Of a stretch of 64,000 nt of DNA, positions 3,835 to 16,151 are shown in pieces. Both the position numbers and the translations under genes were made by a program. Origin of the DNA: a virus; IMG/VR virus record IMGVR_UViG_3300042547_000432. The stretch is one strand, 5' to 3'. Each line of letters begins with the position of its first letter. Within the stretch, counting starts at the first letter, position 1. Below the pieces are notes generated by a model. That model worked only from the letters and a program-made list of their open reading frames with translations, was not told the origin of the DNA and did no database searches.

Positions 3835-3875
3835 ATTTTATATATGATATTGAGATTGTAACATTCAATACCAAA

Positions 3876-3950
3876 CACTCTCTGTAGGATTCGAACCTAC
3901 GACACCTTGATCCGTAGTCAAGTGCTCTATATCCACTGAGCTAAGAGAGT
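3876..3950 (-). tRNA. tRNA-Arg(ACG)
   Basis: Cloverleaf; loop CTACGGA. Confidence 0.95.
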
Positions 3951-3953
3951 AGG

Positions 3954-4025
3954 CGAAGGGCCAGAGACTTGAACTCTGAACTTTGGTTTTGGAGACCAAG
4001 ATGTTACCAATTACACCAACCCAAC
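3954..4025 (-). tRNA. tRNA-Trp(CCA), two U.U mismatches in the acceptor stem
   Basis: Loop CTCCAAA; T-arm CAGAG-TTCAAGT-CTCTG. Confidence 0.8.
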
Positions 4026-4028
4026 ACA

Positions 4029-4100
4029 TTCTGAGGGTAGGATTCGAACCCACGAATGGCGGGACCAAAACCCGCTGCCTTACCGCTTGGCGACCTCAGA
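4029..4100 (-). tRNA. tRNA-Gln(TTG)
   Basis: Cloverleaf; loop TTTTGGT. Confidence 0.95.
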
Positions 4101-4172
4101 AGCCCTCAGTCGGATTTGAACCAACGACCTACTCATTACTAGTGAGTTGCTCTACCACTGAGCTATAGGGGC
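4101..4172 (-). tRNA. tRNA-Thr(AGT)
   Basis: ACTCA-CTAGTAA-TGAGT anticodon arm; U73. Confidence 0.9.
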
Positions 4173-4174
4173 GG

Positions 4175-4245
4175 GGTGTCGTGAGGGAATCGAACCCTCA
4201 TGTAGAGAACCACAATCTCCTGTCTTACCATTAGACTAACGACAC
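4175..4245 (-). tRNA. tRNA-His(GTG)
   Basis: Loop TTGTGGT; C73; base at -1 is T. Confidence 0.9.
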
Positions 4246-4246
4246 A

Positions 4247-4320
4247 AGGCAGTAGGTAGATTTGAACTACCGACCATAGGAATATGAGACCCGTGCTCTG
4301 CCAGACTGAGCTATACTGCC
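4247..4320 (-). tRNA. tRNA-Met or Ile2 (CAT) with weak anticodon stem
   Basis: Loop CTCATAT; perfect acceptor and T stems; only 3 pairs in the anticodon stem. Confidence 0.75.
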
Positions 4321-4323
4321 AAG

Positions 4324-4416
4324 TTGGGAGAGGGTGGAATCGAACCACCATTGCCAATGAACGGAATCGAACCGTCTCTGATACCGTCGTACCCACCATC
4401 CAAGGTGCTCTCCCAA
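4324..4416 (-). ncRNA. tRNA-like RNA with two T-arms and no canonical anticodon loop
   Basis: GGGAGAG/CTCTCCC-A acceptor; GACGG-TTCGATT-CCGTT and GGTGG-TTCGATT-CCACC. Confidence 0.7.
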
Positions 4417-4417
4417 G

Positions 4418-4489
4418 TGGAACCGACAAGATTTGAACTTGTGACCGCTCGGTTATCAGCCGAGTGCTCTACCACTGAGCTACGGTTCC
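4418..4489 (-). tRNA. tRNA-Ile(GAT)
   Basis: CTCGG-CTGATAA-CCGAG. Confidence 0.95.
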
Positions 4490-4493
4490 AAGG

Positions 4494-4566
4494 TCGAAGA
4501 GGGTGGAGTTGAACCACCGACACCATGTTCTTCAGACATGTGCTCTACCAACTGAGCTACTCCCCG
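4494..4566 (-). tRNA. tRNA-Phe(GAA)
   Basis: CATGT-CTGAAGA-ACATG. Confidence 0.95.
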
Positions 4567-4569
4567 AGA

Positions 4570-4643
4570 TAGTCCCAACGGGATTCGAACCCGTGTCTAC
4601 ACTGTGAAAGAGTGTTGTCCTAGGCCGACTAGACGATGGGACC
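4570..4643 (-). tRNA. tRNA-Glu(TTC)
   Basis: ACACT-CTTTCAC-AGTGT. Confidence 0.95.
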
Positions 4644-4646
4644 AGA

Positions 4647-4740
4647 TGGGAGGGGTATCCCACACGAAGTTGCTTACGGATTACGCTTCGTAGCCTTATG
4701 AATCCTGCCATCATCCGATGGTGGTTAGAAATCCCTCCCC
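4647..4740 (-). ncRNA. Unidentified structured RNA closed by an acceptor-like stem
   Basis: GGGAGGG/CCCTCCC-A terminal stem, internal hairpins, potential ACGAAG/CTTCGT pseudoknot. Confidence 0.55.
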
Positions 4741-4821
4741 AATTCCAGTTGTTGCTACAACATTTCTCTACACACTGGCAAACTCTAAGAAATGCGTGAG
4801 AGTTAGAATACTGACTCTCAA

Positions 4822-4895
4822 CGACCCATACGGGATTCGAACCCGTGATCTCCACCGTGACAGGGTGGCGTCATAGACCGCTAGACTAATGGGTC
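4822..4895 (-). tRNA. tRNA-Asp(GTC)
   Basis: CCACC-CTGTCAC-GGTGG. Confidence 0.95.
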
Positions 4896-4899
4896 AAGG

Positions 4900-4990
4900 T
4901 GAGAGAGGAGGGAATTGAACCCCCGATGGTTCTTATGTAACGGTTTTACAGACCGCAGCCACACGTATTGCCAACAGTAGCCACTCTCTC
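4900..4990 (-). tRNA. tRNA-Tyr(GTA), enlarged D-loop
   Basis: GCGGT-CTGTAAA-ACCGT; long variable region. Confidence 0.9.
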
Positions 4991-4993
4991 ATA

Positions 4994-5065
4994 TGGGTCT
5001 GGCGGGATTCGAACCCACAACTTGCTGGTTAAAAGCCAGTTACTCTACCGTTGAGTTACAGACCC
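4994..5065 (-). tRNA. tRNA-Lys(TTT)
   Basis: Loop CTTTTAA. Confidence 0.95.
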
Positions 5066-5076
5066 AAGAGTTAAAT

Positions 5077-5103
5077 TGTCAAGGTGCTGGTGGGTCTCCC
5101 ACC
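5077..5103 (-). promoter_or_regulatory. Putative boxB/boxA antitermination signal in the tRNA operon leader
   Basis: GGTGGG-AGA-CCCACC hairpin, then GCACCTTGACAA. Confidence 0.5.
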
Positions 5104-5112
5104 GATGTATCT

Positions 5113-5141
5113 ACAATAAAATAGGGGGGCGGTTTTGTCAA
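5113..5141 (-). promoter_or_regulatory. Sigma70 promoter of the main tRNA operon
   Basis: TTGACA-17nt-TATTGT; -35 enclosed by GGGGGGC/GCCCCCC. Confidence 0.7.
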
Positions 5142-5181
5142 CTGCCCCCCTGATAAATCTTGCTTATGTGTCAGATGTCGG

Positions 5182-5283
5182 TCATCGTTTCCACTTATGA
5201 GCAAGCACGGGGGCCTGAGCAATATGCCAATAACGGCAATCGCTTTCCATAAAAATCTCAATTTGCTTGCTGAAGTTAGTCAT
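5182..5283 (-). CDS. 33-aa peptide under a late promoter
   Basis: MTNFSKQIEIFMESDCRYWHIAQAPVLAHKWKR; TATAAATA at 5304-5311 and AAAGG RBS. Confidence 0.55.
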   Translation of the reverse strand: MTNFSKQIEIFMESDCRYWHIAQAPVLAHKWKR

Positions 5284-5303
5284 GATGTTCGACCTTTAGT
5301 GTT

Positions 5304-5311
5304 TATTTATA
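5304..5311 (-). promoter_or_regulatory. T4-type late (gp55) promoter
   Basis: TATAAATA. Confidence 0.7.
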
Positions 5312-5319
5312 AGAGTTTA

Positions 5320-5415
5320 GATGGAGTAAGCGTAATACACCTCAAGGATGTAACAGAGGCTTACCCTCTATCTCGCTACGGCATTCTGGATTATCAGCTC
5401 CAGCGCAAGTAGCAA
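5320..5415 (-). ncRNA. 96-nt structured RNA, copy 1 (directly 3' of tRNA-Asn)
   Basis: 93/96 identical to 8924..9019; differences preserve pairing. Confidence 0.7.
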
Positions 5416-5488
5416 CTCCCCCACCTGGACTCGAACCAGGAACCCCAGAGTTAACAGCTCCGTGCTCTGCCAATTGAGCTATAAGGGA
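5416..5488 (-). tRNA. tRNA-Asn(GTT)
   Basis: Loop CTGTTAA; G73. Confidence 0.95.
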
Positions 5489-5494
5489 ATGAAA

Positions 5495-5665
5495 TCAGGA
5501 TTGCTTACAATCCATCATGTATTCTACAGTATTTGCTATGTCATTCATAGCATCACGTAGATGTGGTTGTTGACCACTTTCTTGTCTAACCATTGGGCGA
5601 TGGTTATCGGTAAGAGACCAGCGCCATTGCTTTACAATAGCACAATACCATAGATTAATTTTCAT
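5495..5665 (-). CDS. Hypothetical protein, 56 aa (MKINLWY..)
   Basis: Subset of track ORF 5495..5779. Confidence 0.7.
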   Translation of the reverse strand: MKINLWYCAIVKQWRWSLTDNHRPMVRQESGQQPHLRDAMNDIANTVEYMMDCKQS

Positions 5666-5825
5666 GTTTGAAATATTCAAGTCTAATCCAGTTGAGAAGG
5701 GCATTGATTTCAAATGACGAATGATTTGGTGTGCCCAGATAATACTCAGTATTCTCTGCGTCGGCAACATATTTTTCAAGAGCTGCTATGGCAACTTCTC
5801 TGTCTCTTTGTGAAATAAGTGACAT
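5655..5825 (-). CDS. Hypothetical protein (MSLISQRDRE..)
   Basis: Track ORF 5655..5840. Confidence 0.7.
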   Translation of the reverse strand: MSLISQRDREVAIAALEKYVADAENTEYYLGTPNHSSFEINALLNWIRLEYFKHEN

Positions 5826-5847
5826 GTTATTTATCCTCAAGGATAAG

Positions 5848-5919
5848 AGCGGGGTATCGGAATCGAACCGACGACATCTAACTTGGAAGGATAGCGTTCT
5901 ACCGCTGAACTAACCCCGC
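5848..5919 (-). tRNA. tRNA-Gly(TCC)
   Basis: Loop CTTCCAA; U73. Confidence 0.95.
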
Positions 5920-6158
5920 AGATGCTCTCTGCTACACTATGTATCTGCTACGATACCATGTAGTTTTGAGCAAACCCAACATATTGGGTTGCAATCTCCA
6001 GTTTTTCATGCCTTTGATTGCGTGATAGAGGCTTGATTGCGAAAGGCAATCTGTTTGAGCATATCATAACGACCGTGCCAATCTCGGACTAGGCTAACTT
6101 AATACTACCTGGCCAGATAGTTGGCGTCTTTCTAGGCTATCTGCCTAACGACTACCAA
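5920..6158 (-). ncRNA. Candidate ~240-nt structured RNA between tRNA-Leu and tRNA-Gly
   Basis: Several hairpins (TAGGC/GCCTA, GATTGC/GCAATC, CCCAA/TTGGG); no convincing ORF. Confidence 0.4.
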
Positions 6159-6239
6159 TGTCGCTGAAAGGACTTGAACCTTCACGTTAAAAACACTGGA
6201 ACCTAAACCCAGCGCGTCTACCAATTCCGCCACAGCGAC
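6159..6239 (-). tRNA. tRNA-Leu(TAG)
   Basis: CTGGG-TTTAGGT-TCCAG; V-arm. Confidence 0.95.
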
Positions 6240-6240
6240 G

Positions 6241-6317
6241 TGGGGGCGGGAGTGGGATTTGAACCCACGACCTGCGGCTTATGAGACCGCTGAACTACCA
6301 GACTGTTCCATCCCGCG
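6241..6317 (-). tRNA. Initiator-type tRNA-Met(CAT), CCA encoded
   Basis: C1:C72 mismatch; loop CTCATAA; CGCGGGA 5' end. Confidence 0.9.
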
Positions 6318-6328
6318 TTGACCCCCAT

Positions 6329-6358
6329 ATTATATATGAGGGAAGTGGGGGTTGTCAA
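6329..6358 (-). promoter_or_regulatory. Sigma70 promoter for tRNA-fMet/Leu/Gly
   Basis: TTGACA-18nt-TATAAT. Confidence 0.75.
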
Positions 6359-6367
6359 TCCCCCCGT

Positions 6368-6510
6368 TGCTCGGCTCGCCACCTGCCCTTTGACCAGAGG
6401 CAGGAAACTGGGCGGGAGTAACCCCATCCGCACCACCAGTTTTTGAGAGAAACTGGAAACTCATGAAGGGGGACTTCACCCGACCAGGGCAAGTTTAGTG
6501 TCATTCCGAG
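6368..6510 (-). ncRNA. Structured RNA resembling the cyanophage wcaG RNA motif (3' part) plus upstream hairpins
   Basis: GGTGCGGA-TGGGGTTACTCC-CGCCCAGTTT-CCTGCCT..GGGCAGG-TGGCGAGCC with CCAG/CTGG pseudoknot; family name from memory, needs an Rfam search. Confidence 0.55.
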
Positions 6511-6695
6511 ACAGGTTGAGGAATCAAATCCTCGTATGCAGCTTCTACTGCTTTTTCAAAATCGTCGAAAGGTCCGTGGTTTACTTCATTATAGACATAA
6601 TAATATTTGTCTTCCACTTCCAAAACATCGAAGTAAGTAATAACTTCATCATCGTTGTCAAGTTTTTCAACAATTCTCATCTTAACAGGATTCAT
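6501..6695 (-). CDS. Hypothetical protein (MNPVKMRIVE..)
   Basis: Subset of track ORF 6501..6785. Confidence 0.65.
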   Translation of the reverse strand: MNPVKMRIVEKLDNDDEVITYFDVLEVEDKYYYVYNEVNHGPFDDFEKAVEAAYEDLIPQPVSE

Positions 6696-6705
6696 ACCTA
6701 AGCAT

Positions 6706-7080
6706 TCAAAGGGTAACATTGACTCCACCAGTACTGTTATAGTCCGTCCGTGACTCTGTATAATATGTATAAGGAGCAAATACATTCATATGCTCATTAA
6801 ACTTTACAGGAGTGCTGGCATACTTAAAATCATATTGTACTTTGCCATCTTCTCTTTTGGTTTTGTCAATAGAAATCAAACCTTCCACTGCGGAACCGCC
6901 CCTTTCTTTAGCAGCTGCTTCAATGCGCTCAGCAAACATCGTATTGTCAATTTCAATCAATGCTTTAGAAATCGCAGAGATTACATAAACACTTTCTTTA
7001 TCAGCAAACTTAAGTGCTGTGCGTAGAGCATCTTCTGCTCGCTCAAGTTGATACTTTACTGAGTCATTCATCTTCATCAT
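6706..7080 (-). CDS. Hypothetical protein
   Basis: Track ORF 6706..7149; start chosen by AAGGAG RBS. Confidence 0.65.
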   Translation of the reverse strand: MMKMNDSVKYQLERAEDALRTALKFADKESVYVISAISKALIEIDNTMFAERIEAAAKERGGSAVEGLISIDKTKREDGKVQYDFKYASTPVKFNEHMNVFAPYTYYTESRTDYNSTGGVNVTL

Positions 7081-7333
7081 CGTCATCTCCTTTAATATAG
7101 CATGGAACTGTATCTGGGTCAAGCCACTTAGTATACTCAAAATCCTCAATCGCTGTCATAAACTGCATTTCGTTATCACAGAGATACATGTCACGGTAAC
7201 GACCAGTAAACGAACACATCTTCTGAATTCGATAATCTGGTTTGCCGTTAATCTCCAGGATGCCTGCTTGAACGTAGCGATAAGGGAAACGATCAAGAAT
7301 GGTCTTCACGCGGTTTGGGTTTGTTACACTCAT
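7064..7333 (-). CDS. Conserved cyanophage hypothetical protein
   Basis: RFPYRYV..GKPDYRIQK. Confidence 0.75.
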   Translation of the reverse strand: MSVTNPNRVKTILDRFPYRYVQAGILEINGKPDYRIQKMCSFTGRYRDMYLCDNEMQFMTAIEDFEYTKWLDPDTVPCYIKGDDDDEDE

Positions 7334-7508
7334 TACAGTAGTAGGAGAATCCTGTGCGAAAGTATTTTACCACTTGGTAGTGGTCCTTGTCAAGGGGTTG
7401 CTCGGTGTGGCACTTGGAACAGATTCTAGTCCCACCACCAACAGAGATTTGTGAGCGTTGCGAGGAACTGTTCGTGATAGACTGTACGACTCGGATTGGG
7501 TTTACCAT
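7293..7508 (-). CDS. Small zinc-ribbon protein
   Basis: CSKC...CNEC; start uncertain (long overlap). Confidence 0.55.
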   Translation of the reverse strand: MVNPIRVVQSITNSSSQRSQISVGGGTRICSKCHTEQPLDKDHYQVVKYFRTGFSYYCNECNKPKPREDHS

Positions 7509-8013
7509 CTTTCATGTCTTGTAGATACTGGATTATACCACGAACTACTGGGGTGTCTTGGAAGTATTCGTGCATTCGGTAACAATCAAACTTCTCATTG
7601 TATTGAATGAAATCGTGAAGTGGATCCATGTTACGACGGTATCCCCAAATGAATACATCTTCATCTTTGATGCCATGTTTGTTGATGATTTCTAATGGAT
7701 AAAACTTTTGTCCATCTTCATCTTTCACAGCATCTTCTTCCCTTTCTTCTGTATCAAACTTGAAATGAAGACCATCATAATACTTTTCATGTAACTCTTC
7801 ATCTGGTGCTACACGAACTCGCTCATTCTTTGCCATGATATATTCCATGCGACCTTTGGCATCCTCGTTAGTCAAACGGAATACAATATTGCCAATGTAG
7901 TAATGTACGGGACCACCATAGAGGTGAGAAGATTCCCGTCTCCTGAATGATAGATGAGTAATCTCAAATCCAGGGTCTTCGTGTTCAGTTTCAACTAATC
8001 CTTGTGAAATCAT
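7426..8013 (-). CDS. Hypothetical protein
   Basis: ORF track, 195 aa. Confidence 0.75.
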   Translation of the reverse strand: MISQGLVETEHEDPGFEITHLSFRRRESSHLYGGPVHYYIGNIVFRLTNEDAKGRMEYIMAKNERVRVAPDEELHEKYYDGLHFKFDTEEREEDAVKDEDGQKFYPLEIINKHGIKDEDVFIWGYRRNMDPLHDFIQYNEKFDCYRMHEYFQDTPVVRGIIQYLQDMKDGKPNPSRTVYHEQFLATLTNLCWWWD

Positions 8014-8213
8014 AGTTCAAAATTGTCGAGGTCTTTACCAGATTTGATATGCTGCTTGCGAAGTTTTTTTAGTTCCTTCATCATGTCTTTAATCTCTTTG
8101 TATGCTTCATCAGCATTCATTTTACCACCAACTTCTAAACCAACGATAAGTTCTACTTTGTCACCGAATCTAGCAAGGGCTCGCTCAAATTCAGTAAGTG
8201 TTTCGTAACCCAT
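8010..8213 (-). CDS. Hypothetical protein (MGYETLTEFE..)
   Basis: Track ORF trimmed; its 5' extension lies over tRNA genes. Confidence 0.75.
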   Translation of the reverse strand: MGYETLTEFERALARFGDKVELIVGLEVGGKMNADEAYKEIKDMMKELKKLRKQHIKSGKDLDNFEL

Positions 8214-8237
8214 AATAACCTCATGTGTTTGTTTATA

Positions 8238-8330
8238 TAGGGGCGGAGGGACTCGAACCCCCAACCGCACGGTAATCTGCCGTATACGAAAGGTATAAGC
8301 TTTCCGCTCTGCCAATTGAGCTACACCCCC
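8238..8330 (-). tRNA. tRNA-Ile(TAT) with a 25-nt variable arm
   Basis: GAAAG-CTTATAC-CTTTC; V-arm TACGG-CAGATTA-CCGTG. Confidence 0.85.
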
Positions 8331-8337
8331 GTAAATA

Positions 8338-8410
8338 TGGAGAATAGCGGACTCGAACCGCTGACATTCGCCTTGCAAAGGCGCTACTCTACCAACTGAG
8401 TTAATTCCCC
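8338..8410 (-). tRNA. tRNA-Ala(TGC)
   Basis: Loop TTTGCAA; G3.U70. Confidence 0.95.
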
Positions 8411-8557
8411 TTGTATTCGCTCATAGTATGAATATGGAAGAAGCATAACATCAGAACCATTAGCAGTCGTAATAATAAAACTTTCTTTATTGAGCATCAC
8501 AGCATCCATAATCTCATCAAAGTCGTGGCAAAAAGTTTCTTCTGTAATCGTTTTCAT
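8384..8557 (-). CDS. Phd/YefM-like antitoxin-fold protein
   Basis: MKTITEETFCHDFDEIMDAVMLNKESFIITTANGSDVMLLPY matches the Phd/YefM pattern; ORF ends inside tRNA-Ala. Confidence 0.6.
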   Translation of the reverse strand: MKTITEETFCHDFDEIMDAVMLNKESFIITTANGSDVMLLPYSYYERIQGELTQLVE

Positions 8558-8826
8558 ACCATACACTCCATGTCTTTTTCTTCTTGTAGGCAACCGATAC
8601 TAGTTAAATATTCGATGGTTTCATTACATCCTCCCATCAGATGACCATCAAGAGTCACACGAGGAAAAGTAGCACCTTCACCAAACTTATTATAGAATGC
8701 TTCCCTATTGAAGTCAACATCCAGTTTATACTGCGTGTATTTGACAGTAAAACTATCAAGGATGACCTTGAGCTTACGACAATATTCACAGTTATCTCTT
8801 GTGTAAATAACCAGTTGCGAAATCAT
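8554..8826 (-). CDS. nrdC: Glutaredoxin
   Basis: IYTRDNCEYC, ATFPRV, MGGC motifs. Confidence 0.9.
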   Translation of the reverse strand: MISQLVIYTRDNCEYCRKLKVILDSFTVKYTQYKLDVDFNREAFYNKFGEGATFPRVTLDGHLMGGCNETIEYLTSIGCLQEEKDMECMV

Positions 8827-8847
8827 TAATGTCTCCTAAAAGAAGAA

Positions 8848-8921
8848 TCGGCGTGGCAGGATTTGAACCTGCGACCTTCTGCTCCCAAAGCAGTTGCGCT
8901 ACCAAGCTGCGCTACACACCG
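8848..8921 (-). tRNA. tRNA-Pro(TGG)
   Basis: Loop TTTGGGA; C1-G72. Confidence 0.95.
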
Positions 8922-8923
8922 TT

Positions 8924-9019
8924 GATGGAGTAAGCGTAATATACCTCAAGGATATAACAGAGGCTTACCCTCTATCTTGCTACGGCATTCTGGATTATCA
9001 GCTCCAGCGCAAGTAGCAA
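8924..9019 (-). ncRNA. 96-nt structured RNA, copy 2 (between tRNA-Ser and tRNA-Pro)
   Basis: Direct repeat of 5320..5415. Confidence 0.7.
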
Positions 9020-9104
9020 CGGAAGTGGTAGGATTCGAACCCACGATGGCTTTCACCATGCTTGTTTTCAAGACAAGTTCCTTCAACCACTCGGACACAC
9101 TTCC
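9020..9104 (-). tRNA. tRNA-Ser(TGA)
   Basis: CTTGT-CTTGAAA-ACAAG; V-arm; G73. Confidence 0.95.
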
Positions 9105-9120
9105 ATTTGTTGACCTCCAT

Positions 9121-9150
9121 ATTATATAGGAGGTCTGGGGGGTCTGTCAA
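9121..9150 (-). promoter_or_regulatory. Sigma70 promoter for the tRNA-Ser/Pro unit
   Basis: TTGACA-18nt-TATAAT, both hexamers inside inverted repeats. Confidence 0.75.
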
Positions 9151-9163
9151 CCCCCCACGGTCA

Positions 9164-10042
9164 TCAGAATTTGATGCCGAGACCCGTGGTAAACACAGGC
9201 GAGTAGGTGCCGTTGGTAGCACCGTAGCTGTTAGCAGCGTTGGTGGTAGGGAATTTCAGATCAGCAAAACCAACGAGGGAGTTGGTGATACGACCTTCAA
9301 GACCAATAGCAAGCACAGCTTGTCCACGATTACCAACTGCCGATTGGAAGTTAGCATCAGAGTTGTTAACAAAAGGCACTTGATAACCAGCAGCAGCATA
9401 GATGTTAGCGGCGCTTACACCTGCCTTGCGAGCGATAGACCAGTCATAAGAGACGAGAGCACCACCAGCAGTGCCAATGTTGCCAGAGGGACCAGCAACG
9501 GCATTCAGATAAGGACGAATAGACACAGCATTCTGGTTGCTGAAGTTTTTCACAGCATAGCGAGCCTGGAGGGTAGCACCACCCACAGTCTTCTGAGCGG
9601 TCTGACCAGCACCAGCAACGCCTTGCTGATTCAGCAGCACACCGAGACCAACGTAGTTGCCAACGCCCTGTGCCTTGCGAGCAGCAGCGACCTCAAGGGC
9701 GCTCACGCGGGTGTTGGTAGCAGCAATCTCCTTAGCAAACTGAGCGCGTAGAGCAGCAGCCAGAGCAGCGTCAGCGGCGCTCTGATACTCGCTGATACGG
9801 TCAAGGCAAGCGTTAGTGAGAGCGGCGAGCTCAGCACGAGAAGCAGGTTCACCAGGCTTGAAAGTGCCGTTAGGATAACCAGCGACACAACCGTAACGAG
9901 AGATCAGGTTAGAGATAGCTTGATAAGACCAGTCAGTAGGTTGGACATCTTTCAGTTGAGTCACACTGGTAACTTGTGCCATGGCAGGAGCAGCAATAGA
10001 AGCAGCAGCAACACCAGCAGCAATAAATGAACGAATCATCAT
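9164..10042 (-). CDS. SLH-domain outer-membrane protein (related to cyanobacterial Som/OprB-type porins)
   Basis: Signal peptide; DVQPTDWSYQAISNLISRYGCVAGYPNGTFKPGEPASRAELAA SLH; amphipathic beta strands; C-terminal Phe. Confidence 0.85.
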   Translation of the reverse strand: MMIRSFIAAGVAAASIAAPAMAQVTSVTQLKDVQPTDWSYQAISNLISRYGCVAGYPNGTFKPGEPASRAELAALTNACLDRISEYQSAADAALAAALRAQFAKEIAATNTRVSALEVAAARKAQGVGNYVGLGVLLNQQGVAGAGQTAQKTVGGATLQARYAVKNFSNQNAVSIRPYLNAVAGPSGNIGTAGGALVSYDWSIARKAGVSAANIYAAAGYQVPFVNNSDANFQSAVGNRGQAVLAIGLEGRITNSLVGFADLKFPTTNAANSYGATNGTYSPVFTTGLGIKF

Positions 10043-10086
10043 AGTTTCTTAATGTTTAAACGACATGTCATGCCCGTAATGGGCAA

Positions 10087-10175
10087 CGGAAGTGGTTGGA
10101 TTCGAACCAACGGATGCCCATAAAGACATCGGCGGTTTAGCAAACCGCTGCTTTAGACCTCTCAGCCACACTTCC
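10087..10175 (-). tRNA. tRNA-Ser(GCT)
   Basis: GCGGT-TTGCTAA-ACCGC; V-arm; G73. Confidence 0.95.
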
Positions 10176-10177
10176 AA

Positions 10178-10540
10178 TCACTCAATCACTTCAACATCAA
10201 CTTGGTCAATTGATTCATCGAAGTCTTGAACAAACTCGGATGGAGAGAGATCAACAAATTCTTGTTTTAATTTTCTTTCTTCAATTTCTTTTGCTGCTTT
10301 ATCAATCGCATCCCAATCAGGAGCAGATTTCAATTCAACAACATCTGGAAGGGCAGAAGAATATTCTACCACTTCCATGTTGTTTCCACTGTCAACAATT
10401 TTTTGTGGATCTTCTTTGTTGTCAAATTGTTGAGCTTCTTCGATATTAGTTGACCACAATTTTCCTGGTTCGGTATTACCAGTCCAGTATCCATTATAAC
10501 CAACAACACGAACAATATATGTCATAATAAATTCCTCCAA
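10178..10540 (-). CDS. Hypothetical acidic protein
   Basis: ORF track. Confidence 0.7.
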   Translation of the reverse strand: MEEFIMTYIVRVVGYNGYWTGNTEPGKLWSTNIEEAQQFDNKEDPQKIVDSGNNMEVVEYSSALPDVVELKSAPDWDAIDKAAKEIEERKLKQEFVDLSPSEFVQDFDESIDQVDVEVIE

Positions 10541-10541
10541 A

Positions 10542-10832
10542 TCAAGAAGCTAGTTTTCTTAGATCTTCTACTGATAGTGGTGATTCTTCTACCACAGTTT
10601 CTTCAGATACTTCTTCTGTTTCTACTACAGGAAGTTCTACCGAGAGAGCATCCTCAGACTTTACCGCATTAAGAGTCGAATATCCATGAGACTCAGCAAT
10701 TTCCTTGAGTTCTTTTTCTGCTTCTTTCTTGGTAGCGTACTCTTTTGCTTCCGCAGCTTGATTTACAAAAACAGCTTCTGGATTGCCAGACCAGTAAGTT
10801 GGGTTTTCTCCTACTCTAATTAGATAAGCCAT
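10542..10832 (-). CDS. Hypothetical acidic protein (N-terminus resembles the neighbour's: YxxRVxxxxxYWxGN)
   Basis: ORF track. Confidence 0.7.
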   Translation of the reverse strand: MAYLIRVGENPTYWSGNPEAVFVNQAAEAKEYATKKEAEKELKEIAESHGYSTLNAVKSEDALSVELPVVETEEVSEETVVEESPLSVEDLRKLAS

Positions 10833-10876
10833 ATTTTTATTTAAACAATACGTTTATTCTATCCTATTTATACCAA

Positions 10877-11134
10877 TCAACGAATTTCAAAATCCAATTT
10901 CCTTGGTATCCTTTTAGTATAACCTGATGCCAAAGGAATGTCAAGCTTCTTTTCTTTCGGTTTTCCGATCCCATCAATAGCAGTTACTAATGAAAGGTCG
11001 TTGCCTGTAATGATAGGAAGACCATTCCTATCTAGCCTCAAAAGCGTATGATTATCACAACCACACGCTTTACTTTTATTTGCTTGGTATACTTCTATCT
11101 CTACGCCACATGCGTTACATCTTATCTTTGCCAT
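10877..11134 (-). CDS. Small Cys-rich (zinc-binding) hypothetical protein
   Basis: CNAC..CGC. Confidence 0.75.
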   Translation of the reverse strand: MAKIRCNACGVEIEVYQANKSKACGCDNHTLLRLDRNGLPIITGNDLSLVTAIDGIGKPKEKKLDIPLASGYTKRIPRKLDFEIR

Positions 11135-11342
11135 TTTCTTTTAACCATTCCATCATTTCTTTTTGCATTTTCTTTGATTCCTTATCAAGTTGTCGTTTCA
11201 TATTCCTTGCCATGTTCCAACGAATGAAGTTAATATGGAGTAATTTTAATCTAAGATTAATATACTCTGGAACATTTGGATCCTGCCATATGATATAAAT
11301 CATGGCACAGATTAGTATTAAAGAAATATAATATGTATTCAT
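11115..11342 (-). CDS. Hypothetical membrane protein
   Basis: N-terminal TM segment. Confidence 0.7.
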   Translation of the reverse strand: MNTYYISLILICAMIYIIWQDPNVPEYINLRLKLLHINFIRWNMARNMKRQLDKESKKMQKEMMEWLKENGKDKM

Positions 11343-11350
11343 AGTTTATA

Positions 11351-11422
11351 TGGGCGATACTGGAATCGAACCAGTGACAGCTTGCTTGTAAGGCAAGAGC
11401 TCTACCGCTGAGCTAATCGCCC
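11351..11422 (-). tRNA. tRNA-Val(TAC)
   Basis: CTTGC-CTTACAA-GCAAG. Confidence 0.95.
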
Positions 11423-11721
11423 TGCCTAAGTTCTACGTGAACTTCACGATGACAGTTAGCACAAAGTATAGCACATTTGTCTAGTTCTGTCATTATCTTT
11501 TCCCAACTCCAAAGACGCATCTTATTCCAAGCTGCTTCTTTTTGTGTAGGGTCGAGATGGTGGAACTCTAAAACCTCTGAGTATTTATCATACCCACAAC
11601 GTTCGCACTTTCCACCTTTGTATTCTACAGCATCAAGTTTGCGTTGTTGCCATCTTTGAATACAATACTGATTGAAAGATGATTTCTCATCTTCGGTCAT
11701 CAGTTTATAAGGTTTTCCCAT
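11413..11721 (-). CDS. HNH endonuclease (putative homing endonuclease)
   Basis: CERCG..LEFHH..LCANCHREVH; own TATAAATA at 11747-11754. Confidence 0.9.
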   Translation of the reverse strand: MGKPYKLMTEDEKSSFNQYCIQRWQQRKLDAVEYKGGKCERCGYDKYSEVLEFHHLDPTQKEAAWNKMRLWSWEKIMTELDKCAILCANCHREVHVELRQGD

Positions 11722-11761
11722 TTGCTTAGACCAAATAATTCTAATCTATTTATACGGGAAA

Positions 11762-11833
11762 CAGGCTCACCTGGAATCGAACCAGGGACGACCGCTTAGA
11801 AGGCGGTAGTTATATCCGCTTAACTATGAGCCC
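11762..11833 (-). tRNA. tRNA-Arg(TCT)
   Basis: ACCGC-CTTCTAA-GCGGT. Confidence 0.95.
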
Positions 11834-11851
11834 GTGTGTAGGATTATTATA

Positions 11852-12295: not shown

Positions 12296-12658
12296 TCAAA
12301 CCCGTGAATAGCAGACGCTGGCAACGCCTTGACCTGGGTGAGCGATAGAAGAGAAAGCACCATAAGACAAGTCAAGATCTCTACCTCCAACGTAGGGACC
12401 GCGATCATTTACACGCACAATCACTGTCTTGCCATTTCGTTGATTTGTAACCCTTAATCTAGTTCCGAAAGGAAGCCATTTGTGTGCGACTGATTTGCCA
12501 TAAGCATTGTATCTTTCGCCGTTTGCAGTCGTCTGCCCATGATATCCGTCACCAACTCCATAATGTGATGCGAGGGAACATCCGCTCGCTGCCTTTGCCT
12601 GTAGGGGTGCCAGTCCTGAAATAGCAACGGCAAGAATCGAAAGTGATTTAAGAAGCAT
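12296..12658 (-). CDS. rlpA: RlpA-family lytic transglycosylase (DPBB domain) with signal peptide
   Basis: ASHYG..TANGERY..AHKWLPFGT..VRVNDRGPY..DLSYGAF. Confidence 0.9.
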   Translation of the reverse strand: MLLKSLSILAVAISGLAPLQAKAASGCSLASHYGVGDGYHGQTTANGERYNAYGKSVAHKWLPFGTRLRVTNQRNGKTVIVRVNDRGPYVGGRDLDLSYGAFSSIAHPGQGVASVCYSRV

Positions 12659-12669
12659 TAATTTACATT

Positions 12670-12733
12670 GAACTCTACATCCCAATAGAGAAAGCGCACT
12701 TCCCCTTTCTCAAGGGGCAATCTCCTGGGCTCT
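12670..12733 (-). promoter_or_regulatory. Candidate cis-regulatory RNA in the rlpA leader
   Basis: CCCA/TGGG stem enclosing CCCCTT-GAGA-AAGGGG, alternative GAGAAAG/CTTTCTC pairing. Confidence 0.4.
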
Positions 12734-12853: not shown

Positions 12854-13045
12854 ATGCCAAGAGAGTGGAATACTCCAATCAGGGAGCCATGGAATGCTCC
12901 CATCCATAATACTTTAAAAGCAATAGACAACCACACTCAAGAGTATTTCAAGAGTGGCGACATTTGGCACCTACAAAAAGCAGATCAACTCAGGCAATAT
13001 CTACACGAGTTAAAAACCTGGATACATAGGCAGGAAGGAAGATGA
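12854..13045 (+). CDS. Hypothetical protein
   Basis: ORF track; CTAAATA late-type promoter just upstream. Confidence 0.75.
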   Translation: MPREWNTPIREPWNAPIHNTLKAIDNHTQEYFKSGDIWHLQKADQLRQYLHELKTWIHRQEGR

Positions 13046-13281
13046 AACTCAATCTAAGCAAACTGATCTTTATTGTTTGTATATCAGCCGTTGGTTTTGT
13101 TGGATTGAATTTTATTGCCTGTAACTTTATGATACCAGGATCTATTATTAGTGCTAATGTATTGGGTGGATTAAAAAATCCTCCTCCCTTGGATTGTAAA
13201 GAATCCGAGAGAAGAGGATATGAAACTTTATTGGCAATTCTAACAACAGTAATTGCTTTAAGAACTAAAGTCGAAGATTAA
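13042..13281 (+). CDS. Small membrane protein (holin/antiholin candidate)
   Basis: Two hydrophobic segments; convergent with the lysozyme. Confidence 0.55.
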   Translation: MKLNLSKLIFIVCISAVGFVGLNFIACNFMIPGSIISANVLGGLKNPPPLDCKESERRGYETLLAILTTVIALRTKVED

Positions 13282-13736
13282 GAAACCCAGAGTTTACCTT
13301 CTGCTTTTCTTCTTCTGAGTAATCCTGCTTCAACTTTGCTACCAGGATTACGATACATCTCTAATGTTTTTGGGATGAGTCCCCAATTCTTCTCACGTAG
13401 ATGGCGAGAGATAGTACTGAAATTATATGCACCGTAAAACCCAGCACCGAGATTATAAGCAAAGGATAAAAGTGCTCCGCGTTGGTTATCATTCATTTCA
13501 CTCCAATAAGGTATTTTAGATAGGGCAGGAATAAACTCCTTCTTAATCTGATTCATCAAGAGATCATCAGCAACCTTCTGCGAAATCTTATCACCAAGTT
13601 TAAATGGTTTGCCGTTGAAATCTCTGGTGCTTCCCCAACCAATAGTGATGGGCAAACTACCTGTATGTGGATCTGGGTATGCTGTCAGTTTACAACCTTC
13701 AAACTCTTTGATTAACTCTACTCCCTCCACAGGCAC
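13278..13736 (-). CDS. GH24 phage lysozyme domain (probably made as a -1 frameshift fusion with the upstream peptidase)
   Basis: IKEFEG..AYPD..TIGWGST catalytic E-D-T pattern; ALLSFAYNLG; GLLRRRKAE. Confidence 0.9.
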   Translation of the reverse strand: MPVEGVELIKEFEGCKLTAYPDPHTGSLPITIGWGSTRDFNGKPFKLGDKISQKVADDLLMNQIKKEFIPALSKIPYWSEMNDNQRGALLSFAYNLGAGFYGAYNFSTISRHLREKNWGLIPKTLEMYRNPGSKVEAGLLRRRKAEGKLWVS

Positions 13737-13795
13737 ATCATATTTGCTCGCTGAAGGAGTAGAGTTGTCTACTTTTTTACGTCAAAGATTCTCCC
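13714..13795 (-). promoter_or_regulatory. Programmed -1 ribosomal frameshift signal
   Basis: GGGAG (13795-13791), 12 nt, A_AAA_AAG (13778-13772), 5 nt, 14-bp stem 13766-13753/13727-13714. Confidence 0.8.
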
Positions 13796-14470
13796 CCATC
13801 CATCATTGCGATTGGGGCACCAGCGACGCATGAGATCTGTCTTCTTATATACGGCGCCCTTACCGTTGGTTACAGCGCCCGTATAACCGTCGTTAAGACT
13901 GCCGTAAGGGTCGTTAACAACATAATCACCTGTAGGGGTCTTGCCGATGATTACAACCATGTGCCCCCCAGTAGGAGCAGATAGAGGGCCGCGATGGAGA
14001 ATGCCAGCAACCACGGGTCTCCCAGCAGCAAGCTCACGGTCAAGGTCATTAAAAGATAGACCATAACTAAAGTGTGACTTAATACCATAAGATGCCAAAA
14101 CTTTGGTTTGAACCACATGGTCAGTTGTGTCACCGATTGAGAAAACTTTTTGAACGTAAGCATCGTCGCCTTTCGCTCCCTTGAGTGTGCCTGGCTTAAA
14201 ATATTCTAACACCATAGCACAGGCAGATGAGTTACAAGTGCGATTAGCATCTCTGTAGTTATCTGTCTGTGGAAAGAAAGGCACGTCAAGTATATTTGAT
14301 TTTGGTTTTTCTGGTTGTGCTCTAAATGTTTTAACCCACCCAGAAGAATCTTCCATTTCTTCTGGTGTTTTTTTATTGAGAGCATCTTCAAAATATCCAA
14401 CAGCTTCTACATGCTTTGGATTCTTTTCGTCGTAATGTTTAAAAAAGTTGTGTAAATCAATCTTTGCCAT
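13769..14470 (-). CDS. C39-like cysteine peptidase (cell-wall hydrolase candidate)
   Basis: LDVPFFPQ..TCNSSACAM, GHMVVIIG, VNDPYG: Cys-His-Asp triad pattern. Confidence 0.85.
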   Translation of the reverse strand: MAKIDLHNFFKHYDEKNPKHVEAVGYFEDALNKKTPEEMEDSSGWVKTFRAQPEKPKSNILDVPFFPQTDNYRDANRTCNSSACAMVLEYFKPGTLKGAKGDDAYVQKVFSIGDTTDHVVQTKVLASYGIKSHFSYGLSFNDLDRELAAGRPVVAGILHRGPLSAPTGGHMVVIIGKTPTGDYVVNDPYGSLNDGYTGAVTNGKGAVYKKTDLMRRWCPNRNDGWGRIFDVKK

Positions 14471-14804
14471 CTTTGTCTCCGAATAGTTGAATGTAATACT
14501 CTGCGTCTACTACGACCAGTGGTTTTTTGCCATTCTTTTTCATGACAACAATAGGCTCATAGTCACCACAGTTGGCAGATGCTTGCTCGTAAGCATCCCA
14601 GATATTTAGCTTCTCTACATTCTTACATTCAATGCTATGAGGAAACTTTAATCTAGCAGCACGAGCCATGATAAGGTCTTCACCACCTGCCCCCATAGAG
14701 CGTGATTCAATATCTTCTGGATGAATATTGAGACACTCTACCAGTTTATCTCTCACCCATTGTTGCAGACGGCGACCTTTTGCTTTTGCTGATTGTGGGC
14801 GCAT
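14457..14804 (-). CDS. Holliday-junction-resolvase-like PD-(D/E)xK nuclease
   Basis: SAKAKGR..GAGGEDL..SIECKN. Confidence 0.75.
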   Translation of the reverse strand: MRPQSAKAKGRRLQQWVRDKLVECLNIHPEDIESRSMGAGGEDLIMARAARLKFPHSIECKNVEKLNIWDAYEQASANCGDYEPIVVMKKNGKKPLVVVDAEYYIQLFGDKDGKD

Positions 14805-14969: not shown

Positions 14970-16151
14970 TCACAGTTTAAAACCAGCGAAAGTATCTTTC
15001 TTAACATCTTGTTTAATGCCTCCAATGACATAACTCTCAACCTCTGTTTCCTGTGGGGCAACTTGAAGACCCTTAGAAGATAACCAATGCTGAGTCCAAG
15101 GCAGTGGATTATTTGACATAGGAGTATCAAACACAGGCTTCAAACCAATCGCTCTCATGCGACGGTTGGCGATATACTCAACGTAAGAGTTGAGTAGTTT
15201 ATCATTCAATCCAATGATGCTACCATCCTTGAATAGATACTGTGCCCATGCTTTCTCTTCGTCAACCGTCTTTTTAAACTGCTCTACTGTCCACGCTTCT
15301 TCTTCTTTAGCGATTTGAAGAATGTCTGGGTCATCTCCATTAAGCCAGTTTTTGATAATGTTTTGCGTAAGGACAAGATGCTGGCTTTCGTCTCTGGCGA
15401 TGAGAGAGATAATTTTAGCGGATCCCTCCATAAGTTTAAGTTCGCCAAAAGCGAACGAGCACGCGAACGAAACATAAAATCTAATCCCCTCTAAGATGTT
15501 AACGTTGACTACGGCACGATAGAGTTTACGCTTCAACTCATAGAGAGTCTCCTTCGCAGCAGGCACACCTTCAAGTTGATGTTGCCACTGATTACCCGAC
15601 GAGTAATCTTGTGCTGCTTGAATGAAGTCATCGTATGCTTCAGTTACACTCTTCGCCCTATCAAGGATATTCTGGTCATCAAGGATAGTATCAAATACTT
15701 CTGATGGATCAGAATAGATATTCTTAATAATGTATGTATAAGAGCGGGAGTGAATCATCTCCATCGTTTCCCAGATAGTCATCGCTGACTCCAACTCTGG
15801 GAGAGAACAATAAGGAATAAATGCCATGCCTGGACCACGACCCTGCACAGAGTCAAGCATAATCTGATACTTCAAATTAGAAGTATAGATATGCTTCTGC
15901 TCTGGGCGAAGGGTAGCATAGTCAGCACGATCCTTCTGAAGAGAAACCTCTTCAGGTCTCCAAAAGTATCCGAGTTGCTGTTGAGTTAGTTTATCGAAGA
16001 TAGGATACTTGTAGGTATCATATCTCTGAATGCCCAAAGGAGCACCGAAGAACATCGGTTGCTTTTTAATATCAACATGTTTGGTGTTGAATACCGTCAT
16101 ACCTTCTACGCTAGGTGTGTTTTCGGTTAGTTTAAATCTTACAGCTGTCAC
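14970..16151 (-). CDS. nrdB: Ribonucleotide reductase class Ia beta subunit
   Basis: FWRPEEV, EMIHSRSY, LEGIRFYVSFA, RDESQH, PQETE. Confidence 0.97.
   Translation of the reverse strand: MTAVRFKLTENTPSVEGMTVFNTKHVDIKKQPMFFGAPLGIQRYDTYKYPIFDKLTQQQLGYFWRPEEVSLQKDRADYATLRPEQKHIYTSNLKYQIMLDSVQGRGPGMAFIPYCSLPELESAMTIWETMEMIHSRSYTYIIKNIYSDPSEVFDTILDDQNILDRAKSVTEAYDDFIQAAQDYSSGNQWQHQLEGVPAAKETLYELKRKLYRAVVNVNILEGIRFYVSFACSFAFGELKLMEGSAKIISLIARDESQHLVLTQNIIKNWLNGDDPDILQIAKEEEAWTVEQFKKTVDEEKAWAQYLFKDGSIIGLNDKLLNSYVEYIANRRMRAIGLKPVFDTPMSNNPLPWTQHWLSSKGLQVAPQETEVESYVIGGIKQDVKKDTFAGFKL

Follow-up and report, generated by a model that had tools for sequence, protein, structure and literature searches.

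The locus described here raises the question of how a lysozyme domain comes to be translated when its reading frame opens only at the very end of the preceding gene, one frame out of register with it. The locus lies on the minus strand of a 64,000-nucleotide (nt) stretch of viral DNA, the IMG/VR record IMGVR_UViG_3300042547_000432 (hereafter, the window), and consists of an open reading frame (ORF) for a papain-like cysteine peptidase followed by a frame for a GH24 lysozyme. Our analysis leads us to conclude that the locus is very probably a programmed −1 ribosomal frameshift cassette of the dnaX type, from which both the peptidase alone and a peptidase-lysozyme fusion would be produced. The original prediction, made from the letters of the window, had proposed such a −1 frameshift, and it is supported by an invariant slippery heptamer, a covarying stem, the absence of start codons from many of the lysozyme frames, and natural in-frame fusions of the two domains.

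The peptidase ORF (14470-13769, minus strand) encodes a C39-type peptidase of 233 amino acids, an assignment based on the ORF list, the Pfam family PF13529, an AlphaFold model, and homologues. Its terminal codons are GTA AAA AAG TAG, and its C terminus reads FDVKK, to which a slip would be predicted to add VDNSTPSASK. Directly upstream of the stop codon TAG (13769-13771) and in phase with the peptidase frame is the slippery heptamer A_AAA_AAG (13772-13778), which was found where the original prediction had placed it, at the end of the peptidase gene. From G13772 the −1 frame is open through 13278, a length of 164 codons before a stop is reached, and it encodes a 12-residue linker and then the GH24 lysozyme domain, recognized by translation, PF00959, matches to solved structures in the PDB, and PHROG 3617. 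The predicted transframe product has 397 amino acids, made up of the 233 peptidase residues and the 164 codons of the −1 frame; translation bears out the earlier claim of a fusion of about this length with the lysozyme exactly in frame. Just upstream, three codons before the point at which it opens, the −1 frame is shut by a TGA (13784-13782), so the two frames can be joined solely within the stretch of about 10 nt that holds the heptamer. The same geometry, with a close TGA and a frame overlap of 10 or 13 nt, is found in most relatives. Heptamers of this kind occur at chance level in the window (27 found versus 29.8 expected), and the significance of this one therefore comes from its position, phase, and conservation. 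No promoter-like site was found between the peptidase and lysozyme ORFs.

Downstream of the heptamer is a putative stimulatory hairpin (13714-13766), delimited by RNAfold and covariation counts. Its outer stem of 14 bp pairs a 5′ arm (13766-13753) with a 3′ arm (13727-13714), contains one G·U pair, and is followed by an inner extension, and the spacer between heptamer and hairpin is 5 nt long (13771-13767). Folding confirmed this stem as it was first described, including its length, the single G·U pair, and the distance from the heptamer. Across 111 nt, the predicted structure has a minimum free energy (MFE) of −31 kcal/mol, with a z score of −3.0 relative to shuffled sequences (RNAfold), and no Rfam family matches the window hairpin. 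The 3′ arm is itself coding sequence, for the first residues of the lysozyme domain. The hairpin also contains in-frame GTG codons at 13736-13734 and 13730-13728, which are possible but unsupported starts; there are two of them, not the single nearby GTG that had been claimed. At the position equivalent to the window GTG, S-PM2 and other relatives have ATT or ATA.

In the mechanism that we propose, most ribosomes would terminate at the TAG and release the 233-amino-acid peptidase. Some ribosomes would instead pause on the hairpin that starts 5 nt past the heptamer, slip one base back with tRNA-Lys on A_AAA_AAG, and enter the lysozyme frame, yielding the 397-amino-acid peptidase-linker-lysozyme protein. 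In those relatives that have no start codon, the slip would be the sole route to a lysozyme domain that includes the catalytic Glu. The purpose of the arrangement may be to set the ratio of the two products, which would amount to a fixed-ratio dosage control of lysis.

The evidence that carries this reading comes from related loci. Isolates and two IMG/VR scans with lysozyme queries gave a set of 107 distinct peptidase-lysozyme junctions, which were classified by script into −1 overlaps (55 junctions, with overlaps mostly of 10 or 13 nt), in-frame fusions (23 junctions, 7 of which keep a heptamer), separate genes (27 junctions), and loci with the reverse domain order (2 junctions). An in-phase slippery heptamer is present in 48 of the 55 −1 overlaps, as A_AAA_AAG in 46 and as U_UUU_UUU in the 2 junctions of the S-CAM7 type, and the 7 overlaps that lack it all have an ATGA start/stop overlap. 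This division has no exceptions, in that each −1 overlap junction without an ATGA start of its own has a slippery heptamer; both a heptamer and an ATG are present in S-SRM01 and in two metagenomic junctions (L054 and L074). In about half of the heptamer loci, that of S-PM2 among them, one can read from the point where the −1 frame opens to the codon for the catalytic Glu without encountering an ATG, GTG, or TTG. A scan of IMG/VR with a DNA pattern that combined the peptidase end and the heptamer recovered 90 contigs with 65 distinct junctions. The lysozyme follows in the −1 frame at all 65, and no start codon precedes the catalytic Glu in 35 of the 58 loci that could be scored. The relatives, dozens of them with conserved slip signals, span marine and freshwater phages, and their lysozyme frames are intact, with 65 to 90% identity and no internal stops. 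Alignment of homologous loci was the check that had been suggested for the heptamer, the reading-frame offset, and the covariation of the stem; among the relatives, the heptamer and the offset are conserved and the stem covaries.

Two isolates illustrate the range of these signals. S-PM2, the nearest isolate, has 76% DNA identity to the window across the locus; its heptamer and frame offset are identical to those of the window, the heptamer is followed by TAA, and its stem differs at one compensated position, G-C versus A-U. The A6 arrangement of S-PM2 is the same in two independently deposited records. In S-CAM7, the heptamer is a U run within a run of 8 U residues, and it is followed by a 5-nt spacer and a stem of 8 bp that is unrelated in sequence.

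The pattern of conservation at the junction extends to sites that are silent in the protein. At the three synonymous positions of the heptamer, none of the 46 loci shows any variation: the codon before the Lys-Lys pair ends in A and is followed by AAA and then AAG. In the rest of the same genes, GCA, GTA, and AAG are minority choices, encoding 37% of Ala, 28% of Val, and 36% of Lys residues, respectively, and the synonymous sites that adjoin the heptamer vary freely. The stem is found in nearly all heptamer loci and begins 2 to 8 nt past the heptamer, and its sequence changes wholesale between clades while complementarity is kept. Stem registers differ between loci, and covariation was scored by pair counts on alignments rather than in fixed windows. 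When 23 sequences were aligned with MAFFT, 96.3% of cells proved to be paired and 5 of 11 pairs had changed on both sides, whereas slid controls had 32 to 52% of cells paired. A covariance-model alignment of 50 sequences, which was itself built on the structure and contains two hits on the reverse strand, has 97.2% of cells paired and 85 double-change cells, with slid controls at 29 to 49%. Heptamer loci have a mean MFE z score of −3.96, and the corresponding means are −0.63 where there is an ATGA overlap and −0.14 where the fusion is in frame and the heptamer is lacking (Mann-Whitney P = 9e-13, uncorrected for phylogeny); a hairpin just upstream of the lysozyme domain was found only where the heptamer is present. 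On the strength of these comparisons, selection at the junction is acting on the RNA as well as on the protein.

A further line of evidence is that the fusion is encoded directly in some phages. In-frame peptidase-lysozyme fusions were found in ACG-2014f and at 22 further distinct junctions. In one lineage, the run of A residues is A7 and not A6 (L120, L121, L123, and L124, with the junction at about 1957-1964 of L120); this lineage is 89% identical to a frameshift-type relative, and its single frame encodes the very junction that is predicted for the transframe protein. The A7 lineage is unlikely to be an assembly error because it was seen in four independent metagenome contigs. Judging from these genomes, the peptidase-lysozyme fusion is a real product in nature.

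The simplest competing explanation is that the peptidase and the lysozyme are two ordinary genes, with the lysozyme starting at one of the GTG codons (13736 or 13730), or in relatives at some non-canonical codon, perhaps by termination-reinitiation, and with the heptamer being nothing more than a Lys-Lys tail. Such an independent start has precedents close at hand, since at seven related junctions the lysozyme is plainly a gene of its own that overlaps the peptidase through ATGA and since S-SRM01, L054, and L074 combine the heptamer with an ATG; the window itself offers two in-frame GTG codons ahead of the catalytic Glu, and genes in cyanobacteria often do without a Shine-Dalgarno (SD) sequence. 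We nevertheless consider it unlikely. Around half of the heptamer loci offer no ATG, GTG, or TTG before the catalytic Glu, the GTG is replaced by ATT or ATA in S-PM2 and others, and both GTG codons of the window are buried in a strong hairpin. Conservation of a Lys-Lys tail in the protein would leave the three synonymous sites free to vary, yet they are constant in 46 of 46 loci, and an independent start leaves unexplained a stem that covaries and is restricted to loci with the heptamer. Moreover, the linker on the 5′ side of the GTG is translated in the natural in-frame fusions.

Two other explanations place the frame change outside the ribosome. In transcriptional slippage, RNA polymerase would add an A on the A6 run, or a U on the U8 run of S-CAM7, to give a subset of mRNAs with fused frames. 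The frame change required does equal the insertion of 1 nt in the run, and both the 8-nt U run of S-CAM7 and the existence of the A7 lineage would fit. However, slippage by bacterial RNA polymerases becomes appreciable on runs of about 8 to 9 or more, and A6 is shorter than this; the run is also fixed at six, with G as the next base and a constant codon phase, and the conserved stem lies 5 to 8 nt downstream, a spacing typical of ribosomal frameshifting, so that we regard slippage of this kind as very improbable. The remaining explanation is that there is no frameshift at all but a homopolymer miscall with a true sequence of A7, or a lysozyme pseudogene left by a frameshift mutation, to which we give the least credence of the three. 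A single added A would indeed make a plain fused ORF, and in reference annotations the lysozyme is no more than a short fragment. Yet the A6 arrangement is shared by the two independent S-PM2 records and by more than 60 distinct metagenomic junctions, and the lysozyme frame is everywhere intact and conserved; assembly error and pseudogene formation are excluded in practice.

Several observations weigh against ribosomal frameshifting and temper our confidence in it. That slipping occurs, and with some efficiency, is something that we infer from the conserved signals. The length of the A6 run in the window comes from assembled sequence, the two GTG codons of the window do precede the catalytic Glu, the conservation statistics ignore shared ancestry, and the larger of the two alignments has the features of construction noted above. 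If the host has a plentiful tRNA-Lys(CUU), ribosomes might slip only inefficiently on AAG. In addition, an upstream stimulator was part of the original prediction, in the form of an SD-like GGGAG (13791-13795) in Trp-Gly-Arg codons. The motif is present in the window 12 nt on the 5′ side of the heptamer, as described, but it is not a conserved element in the relatives: across 48 junctions, the Gly codon can have A, T, G, or C in third position, and only UGGGG, which is forced by the protein, is constant. We rejected GGGAG as a general stimulatory element since this third base varies freely.

The slip would also depend on the tRNA that reads the two Lys codons. ARAGORN finds a phage tRNA-Lys(UUU) at 4993-5066 (minus strand), and, as had been stated, none of the other 23 tRNAs of the window is specific for Lys. 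One might speculate that it helps decoding at the slip site. The 24 tRNA genes are clustered in about 8 kb (3875-11834, minus strand) and include tRNA-Lys(UUU) and tRNA-Phe(GAA), the tRNAs that would decode both of the slippery heptamers of the gene family.

If programmed −1 frameshifting is accepted for the window, the in-frame relatives allow a broader view of the locus. Six in-frame fusions keep both the in-phase A_AAA_AAG and the stem, namely, ACG-2014f (L087, NC_026927, 1279-1310), L021, L024, L101, L104, and L106. In these fusions of the ACG-2014f type, the spacer is 5 to 6 nt and the −1 frame reaches a TGA after one codon, which is the layout of dnaX and suggests that these phages may make a short peptidase by the same slip. 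In the ACG-2014f/L021 type, a change of 1 nt in the spacer places the domains in frame, and the heptamer and stem are retained. It is conceivable, although we would lean slightly against it at present, that the cyanomyovirus peptidase-lysozyme locus is a recoding switch that exists in two opposite polarities built on a single shared signal. If so, slipping would lead to the long fusion in phages of the window, S-PM2, and S-CAM7 type and to the short peptidase in phages of the ACG-2014f/L021 type. Selection would then act on a set ratio of both products and on neither architecture itself, and single-base insertions or deletions would flip the default product.

The protein domains on the two sides of the junction are recognizable from several kinds of search. 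The peptidase ORF matches Pfam Peptidase_C39_2 (PF13529) with 55 bits (cutoff, 24) and has 1926 homologues in the homologue search, and its residues Cys79, Cys84, His159, and His170 are invariant in 41 homologues. The AlphaFold model has a papain-like fold and is of modest quality (predicted local distance difference test score, 74.6). Foldseek aligned this model with a C39-like peptidase, staphopain, and the pseudomurein endoisopeptidase PeiR at template modeling scores of 0.3 to 0.46, which are general papain-like matches, and a sequence search of the PDB with the peptidase gave no useful match. The lysozyme frame matches Pfam Phage_lysozyme (PF00959) over the entire profile with 86.2 bits (cutoff, 22.3), and solved GH24 lysozymes in the PDB align with the −1 frame from the catalytic Glu-Gly motif on (best E = 4.7e-14). 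The 405-position profile of PHROG 3617 is matched end to end by the two window ORFs together. A lytic role has support at the level of annotation in the label "endolysin" on PHROG 10051 and PHROG 7, and both domains may act on peptidoglycan, the peptidase perhaps with a lytic role of its own.

The same two domains are arranged differently in other members of the family. ACG-2014f has one in-frame ORF of 405 amino acids, S-SRM01 has a heptamer together with an ATGA-overlapped start, and DSL-LC02/03 have separate genes. In S-CREM1 (L003, 1474-2655) the lysozyme comes first and the peptidase second within one ORF, as is also the case in L151, an order that fits PHROG 10051. Where the genes are separate, the peptidase ends right past its last conserved motif, without a Lys-Lys tail, and the lysozyme starts at an ATG of its own and is longer at its N terminus by 52 to 83 residues (e.g., L004, L005, L032, L128, and L133). 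Close peptidase homologues in L168, L169, and L170 also lack the Lys-Lys tail and are followed by a gene for an RlpA-like DPBB protein with no lysozyme between, and the peptidase can therefore stand alone at the locus.

As for the surroundings of the locus in the window, an ORF for a RusA-like resolvase (14457-14804, minus strand) overlaps the peptidase start at 14470 by 14 nt. Upstream of the RusA-like gene is nrdB (14970-16151), and a terminator-like hairpin (14829-14813) lies between the two. Downstream of the lysozyme is a gene for an RlpA-like (DPBB) lipoprotein (12296-12685, minus strand), and two small plus-strand ORFs (12854-13281) occupy the space between it and the lysozyme. S-PM2 has the same downstream neighbors.

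Recognition of the frameshift would change how these loci are read in databases. Both S-PM2 records carry a hypothetical protein and a 72-codon "putative lysin" fragment (NC_006820, L001, 1581-2764), and in S-CAM7 (NC_031927, L086, 567-1783) the lysin is annotated as a 90-codon C-terminal fragment and the peptidase as hypothetical, so that the catalytic N-terminal half of the lysozyme is left unannotated in both references. No joined coding sequence is annotated in the records of relatives that we inspected. In S-PM2, S-CAM7, and many uncultured cyanomyoviruses, the lysozyme is listed as a truncated fragment or omitted, with the peptidase hypothetical; the frameshift would give back to an ecologically abundant group of viruses a wall hydrolase complete with both of its domains. 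It would also be a well-supported and widely conserved −1 frameshift in a setting other than those usual for phages (tail chaperone, capsid, dnaX, and transposase genes), in viruses whose host group, the cyanobacteria, has hardly been studied for recoding. The family has frameshifted, in-frame (with signals kept or lost), ATGA-coupled, separated, and domain-swapped forms, a natural experiment in which one can ask why a virus would keep a single-domain enzyme and a fused enzyme in fixed proportion. The prediction is directly testable, since infection of Synechococcus WH7803 by S-PM2 is already an established system in the laboratory.

The elements of the proposed cassette have counterparts in several known systems. 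The tau/gamma frameshift of E. coli dnaX shares with the window the heptamer A_AAA_AAG, a nearby downstream stem-loop, and two products with a common N terminus. The logic in the window is inverted with respect to dnaX, in that the shift makes the long product, and the dnaX products are unrelated to the cell wall hydrolase domains of the cyanophages; the ACG-2014f-type in-frame relatives have the logic of dnaX, as the shift would give a short form. The orfA-orfB frameshift of IS911 and the IS3 family likewise combines A_AAA_AAG with a downstream structure and fuses two functional domains, but it serves the transposase of a mobile element. An upstream SD stimulator in dnaX and an SD-like stimulator in IS911 have no conserved counterpart in the cyanophage junctions. 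The dnaX/IS911 architecture invoked in the original prediction stands with regard to the heptamer and the covarying 3′ stem, and its upstream SD-like motif is present in the window but not conserved in the relatives. Among phages, G/GT of λ and 10A/10B of T7 are conserved −1 shifts in which a short major product is extended to a longer minor product at a ratio set by RNA signals. These are structural or assembly proteins with other heptamers and stimulators, whereas the extension in the cyanophages is a complete second catalytic domain.

Endolysin genes with more than one product are also known. CTP1L, Lys170, and LysA of Ms6 each produce, from one locus, a full-length two-domain enzyme and a single-domain product, and they do so with an internal in-frame start that yields the C-terminal part alone; recoding in the cyanophages would yield the N-terminal part alone together with the fusion. 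Closer relatives are the orthologous domains at the same locus in ACG-2014f, S-CREM1, S-SRM01, and DSL-LC02/03, with PHROG 3617 and PHROG 10051 representing fused forms, but these phages need no recoding, since their domains are fused in frame in either order, coupled by ATGA, or encoded by separate genes. The full-text literature that we searched, a body in which most subscription journals are not covered, contained no description of a peptidase-lysozyme frameshift in S-PM2 or other cyanophages, in agreement with the earlier statement that none was known in cyanomyoviruses. A passage of the PRFect paper counts lysins with the genes "known to contain a frameshift," citing for this a study of a Lactococcus phage (Shearman et al., 1994). 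The mechanism is already known from dnaX, IS911, G/GT, and 10A/10B; what is new, as far as the searched literature goes, is the gene context, namely, the addition by recoding of a whole second catalytic domain at a lysis-type locus of cyanomyoviruses.

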